A stretch of 51,095 nt of DNA from Minisyncoccota bacterium (lineage in GTDB: Bacteria; Patescibacteriota; Minisyncoccia; Phycocordibacterales; SW-6-46-9), in assembly GCA_040904005.1 (NCBI GenBank), contig JBBDUH010000018.1, positions 1 through 51,095 of the forward strand, in the 5' to 3' direction. The notes beneath the pieces were generated by a model. That model did no database searches. It was not told the DNA's origin and saw nothing but the letters and a program-made list of their open reading frames with translations. A program made the translations under genes and the position numbers. Shown here piece by piece: positions 2,913 to 50,016 of this stretch (position 1 is the first letter of the stretch; each line of letters begins with the position of its first letter).

Positions 2913-3042
2913 GCCTGTTAGACTTCCGAAGTCTAACAGTGGCTCATTCCGTCTGAGAAAAACATGTTTTTCTCAGACATAAATTCGCACGACCGTTCTT
3001 TTATCCCGTAAAAGCGGAATAAAAGATATCGGGTGCTCATTT
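2913..3042 (-). repeat. E-element copy 1
   Basis: The - strand reads AAATGAGCACCCGATATC, hairpin CTTTTATTCCGC..CGGGATAAAAG, core GAACGGTCGTGCGAATTTATGTC, hairpin TGAGAAAAACATGTTTTTCTCA, then hairpin 2915-2939. Confidence 0.7.
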
Positions 3043-7475: not shown

Positions 7476-7946
7476 TTACCGGGCAAAGTGAGCGAATGCT
7501 TTGTTGGCATCAGCCTGCTTGTGCGCATTCTCACGCTTCTTCACTGCCTCACCTTCACCAGCAGCTGCGGCCATGAGTTCACGCGCAAGAGCATTCGCAA
7601 TCGGCTCACCCTTCTGATTTGAAAGAGTGGCCTCCTTGATCCAGCGAAGTGCTAGCTGTAGGCGACGCTTTTGGTCCACCTCGTAAGGTACCTGGTAGTT
7701 AGCACCTCCAACCCGCTTTCCGCGTACCTCCATCTTTGGACCAACATTCTCTATCGCTGCCTCAAATACATCAATCGGATCCTGCTCCTTCTTGCCCGCA
7801 ATTATCTCCATAGCATCATAGACAACCTTGCGAGCTACGGCCTTCTTTCCATCCTCCATGATGTAGTTAATAAACTTCGCGATCTCCTGCGAGTCGTACT
7901 TATGGTCTGGAGTGATCGGATGTCGTTGTGTGATTGGGAATTGCAT
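7476..7946 (-). CDS. rpsG: 30S ribosomal protein S7
   Basis: 156 aa with S7 hallmarks (..GKKAVARKVVYDA.., ..MEVRGKRVGGANYQVP..). Occupies the str-operon position. Confidence 0.95.
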   Translation of the reverse strand: MQFPITQRHPITPDHKYDSQEIAKFINYIMEDGKKAVARKVVYDAMEIIAGKKEQDPIDVFEAAIENVGPKMEVRGKRVGGANYQVPYEVDQKRRLQLALRWIKEATLSNQKGEPIANALARELMAAAAGEGEAVKKRENAHKQADANKAFAHFAR

Positions 7947-8464: not shown

Positions 8465-9091
8465 TTAGAACGACAGCGGCCCCGTCGTCCCCACAATAAG
8501 CATAAACAACCAGCTAATTATTGGCTGGATAAGCTCGATGGCGAAAAAAATAAAGAAAAGTAGAATCATAAACCCCCAACGCTCAAGGCTGGCCTGGATG
8601 TGAGCAAACTTAGCAGGCAGGAAGTCAAAGAGGATTTTCGAACCATCCAGCGGTGGGATCGGCACAAGATTAAAGATCATCAAAACAATATTTATAAGGA
8701 TAACCCCAACCAAGAAGGTGCCAAAGGCACTTCCGACAGCAATCGGTGCCAGTCGGAGTACCAGCCCGGCAATGATCGCCAAGAGAAGATTGGAGGCCGG
8801 CCCCGCTGCGGCCACAAGCGCATTCCCGTAGCGGTTGGAGATGTTGTGCGGGTTATAAGGAACCGGCTTGGCCCAGCCAAAGATCACTCCTGTACCCGAG
8901 AGTGCCAACAGTGCCGGCACAACAATGGATCCAACGATGTCGAGATGTGGCAACGGGTTCATTGTCAATCGTCCTTGCAGCCGTGCTGTTGGGTCGCCGA
9001 GATAATTTGCCATGTAGCCATGAGCCACCTCATGAATCACGACCGAGATGACTAGAATGGCGATAAATACGATTGTGGTGGTGATGGTCAT
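8465..9091 (-). CDS. M50-family (site-2 protease-like) membrane metalloprotease
   Basis: 208 aa and polytopic, with HEVAHG and NLVPIPPLDG motifs. Confidence 0.85.
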   Translation of the reverse strand: MTITTTIVFIAILVISVVIHEVAHGYMANYLGDPTARLQGRLTMNPLPHLDIVGSIVVPALLALSGTGVIFGWAKPVPYNPHNISNRYGNALVAAAGPASNLLLAIIAGLVLRLAPIAVGSAFGTFLVGVILINIVLMIFNLVPIPPLDGSKILFDFLPAKFAHIQASLERWGFMILLFFIFFAIELIQPIISWLFMLIVGTTGPLSF

Positions 9092-13983: not shown

Positions 13984-14149
13984 ACTTAAATATTATCACG
14001 CTGCTTTAAAAAATGGTTGATTTATTCACCACACAACCGGCCCAAGCCGTCGGATAAAGCGAGCGCTTCGACTTGCGATGCGAAGTGCTCGCGGCTTCCG
14101 AAGTTAAGACTTCTTATCTCGTTATTTAATTAGCGAAGTCTAACGACTT

Positions 14150-17411: not shown

Positions 17412-17654
17412 GTAAATACCGACGCTTCAGTTCAAAATCGTACAAAATTACTCTAATAACAGGCTTGAATTTAAACTATATTTTAGAGCAGTATGACTGT
17501 AAAAAATCCGCGAATTTTTTGAGCATGTGACTATAACACTACTTTGCGAAGATAAATTCAAGCAGTTCTAGGCGCAACTGAAGCGCAAGTGAGCCGCACA
17601 AGATGAGTGCGGTGAACGCGCCCTGGAAGGAAGCAACACCGAAATGCACCGAAT

Positions 17655-18797
17655 TTATCGCTGCAAAGCTTCGATACCGGGGAGGGTTTCCTGAGATAAA
17701 AACGTAATCATCGCCCCGCCGGCAGTCGAAACAAAGGAAAAATCATCTGGTCTCGTATCATCGAGAATTACTGCAGCGGTATCACCGCCGCCAAGAATGG
17801 TCTTACCGGCCATCTTCTTCAGGGCAGCGGCCAGCTTATCCGTCGCTTCTGAGTATCCTTTCTCATACCAGCCGAGCGGCCCATTCCAGACCACAAGCTT
17901 CGCTTCCCTGCAGGCAGCAATTATTCCCTCTAGCGTCTCAGGCCCAAGGTCAACAATCGTCTCGTCATCGGCAACATCATCAGCTGATGCAATGGTCGTC
18001 GCTCCATCTGCAGACAGCACCAGCACATCCGTTGGTAACTTAAGAGCAGCACTAGCCAGGCCACCAGAGAGATTAAACTCTTCTTCCGGCACCACAGAGC
18101 TACCGACCGACTGGCCACCGGCAGCCAGGTAAGCATTGGCCAAAGCGCCACCGACAAACACCTGATCAGCAACACTGGAGAACTTCTCGACTAGTGGTAG
18201 CTTGGTGGAGAACTTGGCACCGCCGAGAATAAACACAAACGGATGCTCCGGATCCAACACCGTACTCAGCGTTTCGTACTCCTCCATAAACTGCCGGCCG
18301 GCATAGGCTGGCAGAAGCGTCGGCAGGCCAACAATTGAGGCATGCTCGCGATGAGAAGCCGAAAAGGCATCATTAACATAGATGTCCGCATAACCAGCCA
18401 GCATCCGAGCAAACTCTGGGTCATTCGCCTTCTCCCCTTCGTACTGACGGAGGTTTTCTAAAATAATTATCTCTCCATCCTGCATGGCATCAATCGCTTC
18501 CTGGGCGGATCCATTTGCATAGTCAGTGACAAATGTTAGGTCGAAGTGCTCCCTTAAGTATGAGAAGACTGGTGCAAACGTATTTTCTGTATTGCCTGAC
18601 ATGTGGCCAGCCAAAATAATCCGCGCGCCGTGCTGGCGCAGCCAGTTAATCGTTGGTAGTAGTTTTTGCAGCCGATAATCATCAGTAATCGCGCCGTTTT
18701 CTGTCGGTACATTCAAAGCACCACGCAGAAAGACCCGTCGGCCACGCAGACCCTTTATATCTTCCAGTGTTTGTAGATTACTCATCGGCAAGTTCAT
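17655..18797 (-). CDS. pgk: phosphoglycerate kinase
   Basis: 380 aa with PGK motifs (RVFLRGALNVP, GGAKFSTKL, GGGDTAA). Confidence 0.95.
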   Translation of the reverse strand: MNLPMSNLQTLEDIKGLRGRRVFLRGALNVPTENGAITDDYRLQKLLPTINWLRQHGARIILAGHMSGNTENTFAPVFSYLREHFDLTFVTDYANGSAQEAIDAMQDGEIIILENLRQYEGEKANDPEFARMLAGYADIYVNDAFSASHREHASIVGLPTLLPAYAGRQFMEEYETLSTVLDPEHPFVFILGGAKFSTKLPLVEKFSSVADQVFVGGALANAYLAAGGQSVGSSVVPEEEFNLSGGLASAALKLPTDVLVLSADGATTIASADDVADDETIVDLGPETLEGIIAACREAKLVVWNGPLGWYEKGYSEATDKLAAALKKMAGKTILGGGDTAAVILDDTRPDDFSFVSTAGGAMITFLSQETLPGIEALQR

Positions 18798-19655: not shown

Positions 19656-19790
19656 GATCCCGCCTGTCTGAAGCCTTGGGTATATGAAAGTGCTTTTCTA
19701 TTCTTTATACAAGGTTGTAACCAGAGTAAAATGATGATATATTTCGAGTAATGATGTCCGCAGCCAGCGCCGGCCCGGGCAATTATTTTT

Positions 19791-19923
19791 AAATAAGCGC
19801 CCGATATCTTTTGCTACGCTAGTAGCAAAAGAACGGTCGCGCGAATTTATGTCCGCGCCCTGAGCAAAGCGAAGAAGTGCTCTTCGAGTAAATTTTGTCA
19901 TTGATATGACAAAATTCCTGGAC
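19791..19923 (+). repeat. E-element copy 3 (carries an extra GC-rich hairpin insert)
   Basis: AAATAAGCGCCCGATATC, hairpin CTTTTGCTA..TAGCAAAAG, core GAACGGTCGCGCGAATTTATGTCC, inserted hairpin GAGCA..TGCTC, then AAATTTTGTCAT-TGAT-ATGACAAAATT and CCTGGAC. Confidence 0.7.
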
Positions 19924-19985
19924 GAAGTAAACTTATTGCCAGCGAGCAACAGACACGCAACCGATTACAACTTAATATTTTTGTT

Positions 19986-30446: not shown

Positions 30447-30493
30447 GTAACCCTCCTTTGGTTGGTTAGTATTTATTTTTAAAAAGAACAAAG

Positions 30494-30610
30494 TGGAGAT
30501 GCCGGGAGTCGAACCCGAGTCCAGACAGACTATACCCGTAGTGGGCACCGCGTATAATCACGATGGTCGTTTTAACGCGTCATCTGGCCGTCGAAAGCCA
30601 AATCATCCCC
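30494..30610 (-). ncRNA. ssrA: tmRNA-like gene reduced to the tRNA-like domain (~117 nt)
   Basis: The - strand reads GGGGATGATTTGGCTTTCGACGG..GGACTCGGGTTCGACTCCCGGCATCTCCA. It has a 7-bp acceptor stem with a G3:U70 wobble, T arm UCGGG-UUCGACU-CCCGG and a P2-like helix. Only 48 nt lie inside that helix, with no pseudoknots or tag ORF. Confidence 0.7.
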
Positions 30611-43506: not shown

Positions 43507-43544
43507 AGGCCATATTCGCACATAACGCGAATATGGTCTTTTTG
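43507..43544 (+). terminator. Terminator after the 291-aa gene
   Basis: AGGCCATATTCGC-loop-GCGAATATGGTCT followed by TTTTT. Confidence 0.8.
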
Positions 43545-43646
43545 AATGAGCACCCGACATCTTTTGTCTTGCTTTAGCACGATAAAAGAACGGTCGTGCG
43601 AATTTATGTCCGAATTTTGTCATTAACATGACAAAATTCCTGGACC
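43544..43646 (+). repeat. E-element copy 4 (most complete)
   Basis: GAATGAGCACCCGACAT, hairpin CTTTTGTCTTGC-TTTA-GCACGATAAAAG, core GAACGGTCGTGCGAATTTATGTCC, hairpin GAATTTTGTCAT-TAAC-ATGACAAAATTC, then CTGGAC. Confidence 0.75.
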
Positions 43647-43713
43647 AAATAAGATTATTTTCCGTTACACGCTACACGTTTTGCGTTATACGCTACATGC
43701 TACACTAAAACTA

Positions 43714-47867: not shown

Positions 47868-49775
47868 ATGCATAAGTTGCTAGACGACCTCAATGAAGCC
47901 CAGCACGCCGCCGTCACCTGGAGTGGCGGGCCGCTGAAGGTAATAGCTGGCGCCGGCACCGGCAAGACCCGCGTTATCACTCGTCGCATTGCCTACCTCA
48001 TTCATGAGAAGGGAGTCGTTCCTAGCCAGATCCTAGCCATCACCTTCACCAACAAAGCCGCCGGTGAGATGCGCGAGCGAGTTGCTGCTCTGGTAGACAC
48101 AGAAGCACTACCAACCATCTCCACCTTCCACGCTCTTGGTGCCCGCCTGCTGCGGACCTACGCACCGAAGCTTGGGCTTAAAAACGACTTCACTATTCGC
48201 GACCAAGGGCAGAGCACACGAATAATCAAGGATCTAATCACAGAGGCCGGCTACGACACAGACCAATGGAAGCCAAAGGTAATTTTGCGGGCGATCAGTA
48301 ATCTTAAAAGTGAAGGACTGGATGCTAGCGAGTTTCGCCCGGCCGTCGGCAAGAGCGGTAAGGAAGCAGTGGTTGCGGATGTCTGGCAACGCTACGAGAA
48401 ACGCTTGCGAGCCGAGAACTCTCTTGATTTCTCTGATCTCATCCTGCGGCCGTATCAGCTACTCAGAGACCATCCGGAGGTGCGAGAGAAACTCCAAGGC
48501 CAGTGGCGCTACATTCATGTCGATGAGTATCAGGACACCAGCCGGCTGCAGTACAAGCTGGTCAAGCTTCTGGTGGGAGAGAGCGGCAGTCTCTTTGTGG
48601 TTGGTGATGGCGACCAAACAATCTACACCTGGCGGGGCGCGACTCTGGATAATATTCTCTCCTTTGCCGATGACTTCAAAGGCGCCGAGACCATCACCCT
48701 CGCGCACAATTACCGCTCCACTAAGCGAATCCTAGCAGCAGCCAACGACATCATCAGCCGCAACACAATGCGTGACAAAAAGGAGCTCATCAGTTTGGGC
48801 GACCACGGCGAGAAGCTAAGGCTCGTCACTGCCTACAACGAAAAAACAGAGGCAACGGCGATGGCGGAAGTGCTGATGAGCCACGAAAGAGCCGGCGGTT
48901 CACTGGCTGACTGGGCCATCCTGTATCGCACCAACTTCCAGTCGCGCATCATTGAGGAGACGCTAAATAAGGCCGGGATTGGCTACCAGATTGCCGGTAC
49001 CGGCTTCTTCGAGCGGGCGGAGGTACGCGACCTTCTGGCGTATGTCACCTTTGCTCTCAATCGCGACTCCGTTACCGACATGCAGCGGATCATCAATACG
49101 CCGCGACGTGGGATCGGCAAAAAGACAGTAGAAAAGATTATTGCTGGGCAGCTCGACGAGCTCTCTGCGAATCGTCGGCAGGCCGTCGATGAATTCTTCG
49201 CCCTTATGGATGAGTTGGAGGCTGACATTAAAAGTAATCCCTCCAGCAAGGCGATAGAGTTAGTACTGAAAAAGAGTGGCCTGGCCGAGGAGTTGGGGAA
49301 GAAAAAGGAGGATGAAGAGCGGCTCGAGAATGCCTACGAGCTAGTTGCCGTAGCAGCTGAGTATGACAGCGAACATACTGGTGATGCAGGCGCCATGCAA
49401 ACCTTTCTAGAGAACGCGACACTTTCCAGTGATCAGGATGAGGTTTCCGAGACAGGAGTACAGCTCATGACAGTGCATGCCTCCAAAGGACTGGAATTTC
49501 CGTGCGTATGGATCTGTGGCCTAGAGGAGGATCTCTTTCCCCGCAACAAGGAGGGTGACCGCGAACGGGCCGAGGAGGAGCGCCGGCTTTTCTATGTCGC
49601 GTTGACCCGAGCACAGGAGCAGGTGGTGCTGAGCCATGCCCAATCACGGCGCTTGTTTGGTGATAGGGAGTGGAAAGCGCCGAGCCCATTTCTGAGTGAT
49701 ATTAATAATGAACTAATTGAGATGGACGAGAGCCAGGAGAGTTTTGATGATGAGGATGTTGTATTTTTTGAATGA
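47868..49775 (+). CDS. pcrA: UvrD/PcrA-family superfamily-1 DNA helicase
   Basis: 635 aa with the motifs AGAGTGKT, HVDEYQDT, VGDGDQTIYTWRGA, YRS and TVHASKGLEF. It has the only TGA stop among the conserved genes here, and that stop lies inside the first bases of E-element copy 5. Confidence 0.93.
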   Translation: MHKLLDDLNEAQHAAVTWSGGPLKVIAGAGTGKTRVITRRIAYLIHEKGVVPSQILAITFTNKAAGEMRERVAALVDTEALPTISTFHALGARLLRTYAPKLGLKNDFTIRDQGQSTRIIKDLITEAGYDTDQWKPKVILRAISNLKSEGLDASEFRPAVGKSGKEAVVADVWQRYEKRLRAENSLDFSDLILRPYQLLRDHPEVREKLQGQWRYIHVDEYQDTSRLQYKLVKLLVGESGSLFVVGDGDQTIYTWRGATLDNILSFADDFKGAETITLAHNYRSTKRILAAANDIISRNTMRDKKELISLGDHGEKLRLVTAYNEKTEATAMAEVLMSHERAGGSLADWAILYRTNFQSRIIEETLNKAGIGYQIAGTGFFERAEVRDLLAYVTFALNRDSVTDMQRIINTPRRGIGKKTVEKIIAGQLDELSANRRQAVDEFFALMDELEADIKSNPSSKAIELVLKKSGLAEELGKKKEDEERLENAYELVAVAAEYDSEHTGDAGAMQTFLENATLSSDQDEVSETGVQLMTVHASKGLEFPCVWICGLEEDLFPRNKEGDRERAEEERRLFYVALTRAQEQVVLSHAQSRRLFGDREWKAPSPFLSDINNELIEMDESQESFDDEDVVFFE

Positions 49776-49866
49776 GGGCCGGACAACTTGACTGCCCTCG
49801 GCAGTCAAGTACCGTCGCCCGAATTTATGTCCGAATATTGTCATTAGTATGACAATATTCCTGGAC
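49770..49866 (+). repeat. E-element copy 5
   Basis: GAATGAGGGCCGGACA, hairpin ACTTGACTGCC-CTC-GGCAGTCAAGT, core ACCGTCGCCCGAATTTATGTCC, hairpin GAATATTGTCAT-TAGT-ATGACAATATTC, then CTGGAC. Confidence 0.75.
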
Positions 49867-49929
49867 CGAGTGTGTGTTCGCAACTTTTAATTTTCTGTGT
49901 AAATTAAAAGTACGATCACACGAACTTAT

Positions 49930-49957
49930 GACTAGAGAATACATGTATTCTCTAGTC
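49930..49957. repeat. Perfect 28-nt palindrome
   Basis: GACTAGAGAATACA|TGTATTCTCTAGTC. Confidence 0.7.
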
Positions 49958-49960
49958 GGA

Positions 49961-50016
49961 ATAAGGGATATGACAATATTCCTGGACGAAGTGAGTGTCC
50001 AGGAATTAACCCTTAT
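49961..50016 (+). repeat. Partial E-element 3' module folded into a new hairpin
   Basis: ATAAGGG..ATGACAATATTCCTGGAC-GAAGTGAG-TGTCCAGGAATT..CCCTTAT. Confidence 0.6.

Follow-up and report, generated by a model that had tools for sequence, protein, structure and literature searches.

The BOX elements of Streptococcus pneumoniae and the bcr elements of the Bacillus cereus group are modular intergenic repeats that lack open reading frames, form stem-loops and vary in the number of their modules, and their mover is unknown; some bcr groups show compensatory changes, and bcr1 makes a TTTAT duplication. The attC sites of integrons keep a fold with little conservation of sequence, carry extrahelical bases on one strand and are recognized as folded single-stranded DNA (ssDNA). 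In E. coli, the motif at the foot of repetitive extragenic palindromic (REP) hairpins is GTAG. Here we describe the E-element, a dispersed folded repeat in a 51,095-nt stretch of DNA (the window; contig JBBDUH010000018.1, positions 1 to 51,095, assembly GCA_040904005.1) from a Minisyncoccota bacterium. The repeat is genuine, non-coding and uncatalogued, and it belongs to a small group of ultra-small bacteria of the candidate phyla radiation (CPR)/Paceibacteria. It is probably a non-autonomous mobile repeat, of the kind of REP sequences and bacterial interspersed mosaic elements (BIMEs) or of palindrome-associated transposable elements (PATEs), that would have moved as folded ssDNA. It resembles BOX and bcr in modularity, lack of open reading frames and stem-loops, and some bcr groups in its compensatory changes, but is unrelated to them in sequence and host and shows no target duplication at the sites compared. 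Like attC, it keeps its fold while the sequence changes, has extrahelical bases on one strand as well as an unpaired spacer, and varies in its terminal structure, but it has no GTTRRRY/RYYYAAC boxes, cassette array or integrase context, and its units lie beside housekeeping genes.

The window is contig C18 of its own genome (G000; 553 kb in 77 contigs, 74% complete). Copies in G000 were sought with the core CGAATTTATGTC and then with nhmmer, and a covariance model built from them (R1) was scanned over the window with filters off. Our main comparison was a metagenome-assembled genome of the same genus, Candidatus Paceibacterota bacterium LejiaC_46_52 (G001, a 784-kb contig). A minimal unit measures ~88-105 nt and consists of two adjacent hairpins, a 5' module that we call M1 (alignment A1) and P3, with the core CGAAUUUAUGUC within this layout. 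R1 finds six full units in the window, which also has one remnant, at 49958-50012. The five full copies of the original prediction are all present where it placed them and score 65.8-74.2 bits, but a sixth, at 49868-49957 (71.6 bits), had been overlooked, and what had been read as a partial copy at 49961-50016 is the remnant, a fragment behind this sixth unit. A possible degenerate copy at ~17600-17660 found no support (8.1 bits, E-value 9.7 with filters off). Five of the six units carry the core CGAATTTATGTC without a mismatch, and ATGACAAWATTCCTGGAC was counted four times, against 0.05 expected. The gene contexts first proposed, at recJ, tpiA/nusA and pcrA, were borne out. Coordinates are collected in Table 1.

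RNAalifold, applied to A1, gives M1 an outer helix, P0 (RAAU:AYUU), whose 3' half lies within the 'core'. Inside P0 come a symmetric tandem G-A/A-G loop and then a 4-bp helix, P1a, which is split from the 3-bp helix P1b by a UC bulge on the 3' strand; above P1b, a 3x1 internal loop (AYA opposite A) leads to the variable hairpin P2. A two-base spacer, AU, separates M1 from P3, which is closed by GUCY..RGAC and in most copies bears a CU bulge on its 3' strand. The stretch UUAUGUC ahead of P3 is nearly invariant across copies. The focal copy, which starts at 43544, adopts exactly this fold with RNA as well as DNA parameters (z = -7.25 and -6.07, respectively).

The helices are maintained by changes on both strands. 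Among the 20 copies of G000, 95.9% of pair cells hold standard pairs, compared to 78.7% after shuffling, 66 cells are changed on both sides versus 21, and sliding the partners abolishes pairing. A wider set of 52 distinct copies, drawn from G000, G001, metagenome relatives and Gracilimonas, has 97.2% of its cells paired (82.0 ± 0.8% when shuffled), 152 double-change cells (49.9 ± 6.5 when shuffled) and covariation in 13 of the 16 pairs. Pair 2:65, otherwise invariant, is switched from A-U to C-G in the L123 copy. When the whole element was considered in the 12 copies with a long P3, the 33 pairs were 99.7% paired and 15 of them showed changes on both sides. The original claim that P2 and P3 differ among copies while always pairing therefore holds, and the structure extends further, to P0, the G-A loop, the 4-bp and 3-bp helices and the UC bulge. 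The fold is also strand-specific: of 52 copies, 43 fold more stably on the sense than on the antisense strand and 37 have G-U as the outer pair, and G-U pairs number 74 in sense folds versus 20 in antisense folds. The T-G pairs of the original prediction are real and tied to one strand.

R1 counts 20 copies in G000, on 11 contigs, and 15 in G001, all of them intergenic or overlapping gene ends by a few bases; no copy was found in four other genomes of the family, in 55 other families of the order or in 150 further genomes of the phylum. A strict sequence pattern that recovers 12 of the 20 G000 copies and 12 of the 15 G001 copies was run over 185,579 species, one genome each. Apart from G001 and two matches due to chance, it returned a single true copy, in Gracilimonas mengyeensis DSM 21985 (NZ_FXTP01000002.1, ~381385-381490). 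This copy (68.5 bits) is the only one in a 4.7-Mb genome; 40 genomes of Gracilimonas relatives contained no E copy, and among relatives no matching region was found that would provide an empty site. Because it falls within CPR diversity (mean pairwise identity 68%) and is 85% identical to a copy of the CPR relative L122, it looks like a transfer into Gracilimonas. Metagenome contigs contributed 21 further matches, most from relatives 67-87% identical to G000 contigs. Contigs L111 and L118 initially seemed to be non-CPR; L118 is probably CPR, since its CPR-type gene resembling REP-associated tyrosine transposases (RAYTs) carries the same flanking palindromes as the family member G005. Phage and plasmid collections (blastn) and viral contigs (pattern search) gave no match. 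In Rfam 15, nothing in the window reached the gathering score, and two copies searched at E-values up to 10 gave chance-level matches only; no known insertion sequence (IS) or miniature inverted-repeat transposable element (MITE) end matched it, and the literature library searched held no publication on it. The search that had been proposed, with a covariance model built from the copies, thus found copies beyond the contig, in the genome and its relatives, and strong covariation among them; the element is neither restricted to this contig nor without covariation.

Comparison of matching sites shows gain or loss of whole units. The window is collinear with G001 C2:1-52.5 kb. Sites at rnhA/recJ, at tpiA/nusA and after pcrA are occupied in both, with different M1 subtypes and P2 tips; G001 is unoccupied at the sites of the window copies at 43544 and 2975, and it has a tandem pair at 7875 that has no window counterpart. 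Genome-wide, 15 G000 loci could be mapped, and the corresponding G001 site holds a unit for 4 of them. The site of the 14150 copy is empty in L122. L123 carries an 88-nt insert just upstream of 23S rRNA, at a place where the window reads GAAATTAATT joined directly to TGTGAATTG, and L121 is filled (CTGTATT, unit, TGGTTG) where C57 is empty (CTGTGGTTG). Neither of these two filled/empty pairs shows a target duplication beyond an ambiguous T. Empty sites in relatives, for which the original prediction had advised looking, are thus present. Orthologues of the gene preceding the focal copy were found only in G001 (58% identity), and there is no close empty site for 43544.

The hairpin and T-run ahead of the focal copy are present without the element at the matching G001 site. 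Three empty sites in all keep the hairpin and T-run that otherwise precede a unit, which indicates that these belong to the target. TT, which may be part of the target or of the element, stands directly before the unit at 46 of 48 independent loci, and a strong upstream hairpin was present at 17 of the 48, compared to 17% of control TT sites. Units are also stacked, in direct orientation, with the intact one next to the T-run and the following ones progressively degraded in the 3' direction (window 49770-50012, C59:2558, C59:10053, C50:21995 and G001 7875), and truncated and decayed copies are common.

One such array lies behind pcrA, which encodes a UvrD-type helicase. In both species pcrA ends V-F-F-E-stop through the sequence GAA TGA (window 49767-49775; G001 C2 ~51445-51456), which in the window lies within the first six bases of the element; that a copy supplies the pcrA stop codon had been noted in the original prediction. 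The last codon and stop are thus provided by the element leader in both genomes despite differing M1 subtypes. The sole G001 unit at this site is 89% identical to the focal window copy, which occupies another site, while the 3'-most remnant at the window's pcrA site keeps the P3 arm of the G001 unit there. The simplest account, we infer, is that insertion recurred between the T-run, which survives, and the unit already in place; each newcomer would bring the same leader, and the older units would decay on the 3' side.

Units are oriented at random with respect to the adjacent genes: 15 of 35 copies run in the direction of both neighbours, 12 run against both and 8 are mixed, and one three-unit array lies antisense between two co-directional genes. 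Many units are located downstream of a terminator, and no promoter shared by the units was found. Together, these observations argue against 3'-UTR-derived small RNAs (sRNAs; UTR, untranslated region) or a cis-acting mRNA element, and the lack of a gene-orientation bias argues against a role in the transcript. The original proposal of an sRNA family derived from 3'-UTRs is further disfavoured by the absence of copies from matching sites of close relatives.

We therefore favour a mobile repeat as the probable explanation. An enzyme acting in trans would mobilize the unit as a single folded DNA strand, for which a Y1 HUH enzyme (RAYT/IS200-like) is the most plausible, though unproven, candidate. 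The unit would land directly 3' of TT, often in the T-run behind a terminator hairpin, without target duplication. The T-run would outlast insertion, so that the same site could be hit again, with new units entering at the 5' side and older ones being pushed 3' and decaying; direct arrays and subtype turnover at fixed sites would then be products of re-insertion. Recognition would depend on the conserved unpaired bases, namely RAAUGAG, the G-A loop, the UC and CU bulges, AYA and the UUAUGUC at the foot of P3. The helices would need only to pair, which would explain covariation among subfamilies. The MITE/PATE-like element with hairpin ends of the original prediction thus stands as far as copy number, filled and empty sites, arrays, strand-specific fold and a narrow host range with a single stray copy in another phylum are concerned, but the features of a classical MITE are absent.

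Candidate machinery is present in the carriers. Y1 HUH proteins are encoded in G000, G001 and Gracilimonas; the CPR versions, 220-244 aa long, are distantly RAYT-like (genes at G000:C19 7672-8403 and at G001 C2 742212-742871 and 246114-246794). Most of the 12 RAYT-like loci inspected have a near-perfect palindrome on either side of the gene, and the rest have one on one side; the stems are lineage-specific, as in ACCTGTAAGGGCT-T-AGCCCTTACAGGT and TGTTAGACTTC-N-GAAGTCTAACA. The arrangement resembles a REPtron, and such a system is present in these genomes; we found no publication linking RAYT or REPIN (REP doublets forming hairpins) with Patescibacteria. Several resemblances connect these genes with E. 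In the clade of the G001 gene at 742212 the palindrome foot is TGT...ACA, and a similar P3 foot, UGUCC..GGAC-S-A, occurs in 22 of 38 copies. The palindrome that flanks the G001 gene (TGTTAGACTTCCGAAGTCTAACA) lies within the decayed second unit at window 2916-2938, and no orthologue of that G001 gene is found in the assembled 74% of G000. The same palindrome arms are carried by the module U before the 14150 copy, and in L118 a RAYT-type palindrome lies ~100 nt from its E unit. These links are suggestive and not proof. E units were also considered as flanks of RAYT-like genes and were not found there. No gene lies between any M1 and P3, and no TnpB-type match scored above the cut-off.

A number of observations weigh against a mobile repeat moved in this way. 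Neither excised forms nor circle junctions were seen, nor were identical copies of very recent origin. Within arrays, units are not preceded by TT, and simple copy-and-paste does not account for P2 tips that differ even between copies at matching sites. Of 61 genomes of the order, 39 contain the Y1 family and only two contain E, which does not co-occur with a RAYT clade across genomes in the manner of a REPtron. Around the RAYT-like genes of G000 and G001 the palindromes are different ones (TGTAAGGGCT.. and TGTTAGACTTC..) with no E match within 1.5 kb, and neither a close RAYT homologue common to the CPR genomes and Gracilimonas nor an autonomous partner with E ends (tnpA with or without tnpB) was found in our searches. 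There is also no replication-strand bias as judged by GC skew, which places the G001 origin at ~10-40 kb and the terminus at ~430 kb: the sense strand is G-rich at 16 loci and C-rich at 20 (9 versus 5 in G001). The missing tie to the replication strand argues against the textbook IS200/IS605 mode. Finally, covariation of equal strength would be shown by a functional RNA.

A family of structured non-coding RNAs is the strongest of the alternatives. Such a family would comprise sRNA genes or cis-acting 3'-UTR elements, with the fold selected in each resident copy and the conserved loops binding a protein or forming a catalytic core. It would account for strong covariation in every helix, for the conserved outer G-U pair and tandem G-A loop, for the excess of G-U pairs on the sense strand and for the low z-score of the RNA fold. 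The pcrA-site copies of the two species, where DNA identity is ~73%, are also both perfectly folded with five pairs changed on both sides, as expected under such selection. However, the 12 copies opposite to both neighbours lie antisense inside co-directional gene pairs, many copies sit just behind a terminator with no shared promoter found, most matching sites in the sister genome are empty and truncated or decayed copies are frequent. The repeat was, moreover, found in only one genus among the 211 phylum genomes searched and has no Rfam match, and covariation between paralogous copies can arise from selection at the moment of copying. We consider an RNA family rather unlikely on this evidence. 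A small element copied through RNA, either a retroelement or an intron-like unit that homes to terminators as class C group II introns do, would fit insertion just behind terminator hairpins and T-runs without target duplication, as well as the strand-specific fold, and a reverse-transcriptase fragment is present on G000:C4 775-1506 (L082). We give this possibility very little credence, since G001 has 15 copies and no reverse-transcriptase match, the G000 gene is interrupted by an in-frame TGA on a 2.2-kb contig, and E has neither intron-like domains nor an Rfam match, its ~100-nt unit being far smaller than any known self-splicing element.

It is similarly hard to credit that the units are merely duplex-DNA sites for a dimeric protein, operator-like palindromes (TGTCAT-N4-ATGACA) that neither move nor fold. 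P3 and many P2 stems are indeed near-perfect palindromes, some of them loopless (ACATGT centre), but asymmetric features of one strand are conserved (the G-U outer pair, the tandem G-A loop and the UC/CU bulges, which are always on the 3' strand), stem sequences vary freely between copies with no common operator sequence, and a site filled in one genome can be empty in another. A bolder form of the mobile-repeat explanation, in which an element without any protein homes to the T-runs behind terminator hairpins as folded ssDNA and the Gracilimonas copy records direct exchange of DNA between a CPR epibiont lineage of saline lakes and its bacterial host, seems improbable to us. Altogether, filled and empty matching sites, random orientation and direct arrays with 3' decay point to a mobile repeat as the probable explanation, whose fold would be required for it to propagate and for which we infer an ssDNA intermediate.

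Table 1. Coordinates of E units, their parts and associated features (window positions unless a genome, contig or locus is named; bits are R1 scores).
Feature	Position	Strand	Description
Target context of focal copy	43510..43543	+	Terminator-like hairpin 43510-43536 and T-run TCTTTTT 43537-43543; host site, outside the element
Focal M1	43544..43611	+	73.8 bits; GAAU-GA-GCAC-CCG-ACA-(variable hairpin P2)-A-CGG-UC-GUGC-GA-AUUU-AUGUCC
Focal P3	43608..43645	+	GUCC / 12-bp stem GAAUUUUGUCAU..AUGACAAAAUUC / CU bulge / GGAC
Focal 3' tail CAAATAAGATTATT	43646..43659	+	Common to a subfamily; also after copies in L122 and at window 19924-19938
Array unit 1	49770..49866	+	M1 49770-49832, P3 49829-49866; 69.5 bits; GAA TGA closes the pcrA frame
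Array unit 2	49868..49957	+	M1 49868-49933, P3 GACUAGAGAAUACAUGUAUUCUCUAGUC 49930-49957; 71.6 bits; directly behind unit 1
Decayed unit(s)	49958..50012	+	Leader GGAATAAGG, P3 3' arm ATGACAATATTCCTGGAC 49970-49987, then GAAGTGAG and inverted GTCCAGGAA
M1 without normal P3	14150..14214	+	Antisense between rnhA and recJ; 74.2 bits
Module U	14039..14149	+	Second repeated module before M1, here and in several G001 copies; ends ..GAAGTCTAACGACTT; BLAST matches at G001 263719, 318114 and 499426
Long variant	19791..19923	+	M1 19791-19854, inserted stem module GCGCCCUGAG..CUCUUCGAGU ~19855-19890, P3 ends 19923; 65.8 bits
Full minus-strand unit	2951..3042	-	M1 2975-3042, P3 GUCUGAGAAAAACAUGUUUUUCUCAGAC 2951-2978; 71.5 bits
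Decayed second unit	2913..2950	-	Leader GGAATGAG 2943-2950, then palindrome TGTTAGACTTC-N-GAAGTCTAACA 2916-2938
Palindrome-flanked RAYT-like loci	G000:C19 7644-8430 (L080 1221-2007); G001 C2 742180-742965 (L079); L085-L095; L118 1-750		

Beyond the minimal unit, the element is modular. In a 'long' subfamily an extra stem module, GCGCCCUGAG-(variable hairpin)-CGAAGAAGURCUCUUGGGGU, is placed between M1 and P3 (window 19855-19890; G000 C59:10211-10262, C59:2694-2722 and C26 ~8800-8840); it has no match in Rfam. A short M1 lacking P1 and P2 occurs at C59:2658 and C26:8843. Module U, ~110 nt long (CAAGYCGKCGG..TAAAGCGAGCGCTTCGA..CTTATCT..GAAGTCTAACGACTT), is located between or ahead of E units, and its ends, AAGTCG and CGACTT, could pair. 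Many G001 units are embedded between ..ACGACTT and CAAGTCGGCA beside this module, with compensatory variants in the outer helix. A covarying outer closing helix (CGACUU/AAGUCG, GCACUU/AAGUGC, CGCCUU/AGGCG) is found only in the subfamily ..CGACTT-E-CAAGTCG..; taken across the whole set of copies, pairing of the 5' with the 3' flank into a closing stem was not significant (mean duplex energy -3.40 versus -3.13 ± 0.30 for mismatched partners).

A GC-rich hairpin, CCCGCC-NNNN-GGCGGG, forms the P2 tip in three units (G000 C29:3553, C59:10292 and C76:2281); in G001 (C2 ~7720-7760) it sits inside the core, between GAATTTA and TTTATGTC and flanked by two TTTA, and behaves like an even smaller inserting hairpin. 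The 3' tail of the focal copy, CAAATAAGATTATT, is able to pair with the upstream T-run and holds a -10-like TAAGAT 16 nt after ATGACA. In this one subfamily, ATGACA is followed 16 nt on by TAAGAT, TAAACT, TAAGCT or TAAAAT, resembling a sigma-70 promoter (window 43628-43655 and 19906-19935, L122 and G001 23239); this may reflect chance or shared descent. As a general outward promoter, ATGACA-16-TAAGAT was rejected, ~5 of 16 copies having TAnnnT in register, which are too few and are kin by descent, and it remains a lead. Just ahead of the tpiA/nusA copy, a stretch TGTCCGCAGCCRG..CCGGCCCGGGCA is conserved in three species (window 19735-19790, G001 C2 23182-23238, L122 5400-5453) and may belong to a conserved terminator or to the end of a small RNA gene. 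Elsewhere in the window, at 30491-30610 (-), Rfam reports a tmRNA match that covers model positions 1-374 in only 120 nt (57.5 bits); this tmRNA may be much reduced, permuted or only partly matched.

CPR genomes are among the smallest known, yet this lineage carries at least about 20 folded non-coding repeats, together with other modules and palindrome-flanked RAYT-like genes. If the element is mobile as proposed, even strongly reduced genomes can retain selfish DNA that depends on its structure. The element also remodels the ends of genes, as the stop of pcrA in two species illustrates, and its candidate recognition features (the tandem G-A loop, two pyrimidine bulges and the UUAUGUC foot) are clearly delimited. 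For the discovery of RNA motifs there is a caution, in that dispersed copies may covary strongly without being a functional RNA. Transcription or mobility of the unit could be tested in practice in the cultured Gracilimonas strain that carries a copy. Should the homing and transfer explanation be true, shared small repeats could help to predict on which hosts uncultured CPR bacteria live, and the cultured strain could serve for the study of mobility.

Unlike a classical MITE, E has ends, GAAUGAG.. and ..CUGGAC, that are not inverted repeats, and filled/empty pairs show no duplication. It is similar to the PATEs of IS200/IS605 elements in several ways: there is a hairpin at each end (M1 5', P3 3'), the ends are not inverted repeats of each other and the fold is strand-specific. 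Insertion may likewise take place 3' of a short T-rich target without duplication and with the target kept at the left flank, where it could be hit again. Compared to PATEs, however, the end hairpins of E are unlike each other, a replication-strand bias is lacking and G000 and G001 contain no TnpB or IS200-type gene. REP/BIME/REPIN systems with their RAYTs differ in other respects, E being larger and built of two unlike hairpins, with internal loops and bulges conserved in M1 and a highly variable tip; its arrays are direct and not inverted pairs, and the RAYT-like genes here are flanked by palindromes other than E. Like those systems, E is a short, intergenic, multi-copy hairpin element, often behind genes or terminators and without coding capacity, which has a nearly invariant stretch at the hairpin foot that may be a counterpart of their foot motif, forms mosaic arrays with other modules and resides in genomes whose RAYT-like genes are themselves flanked by palindromes.

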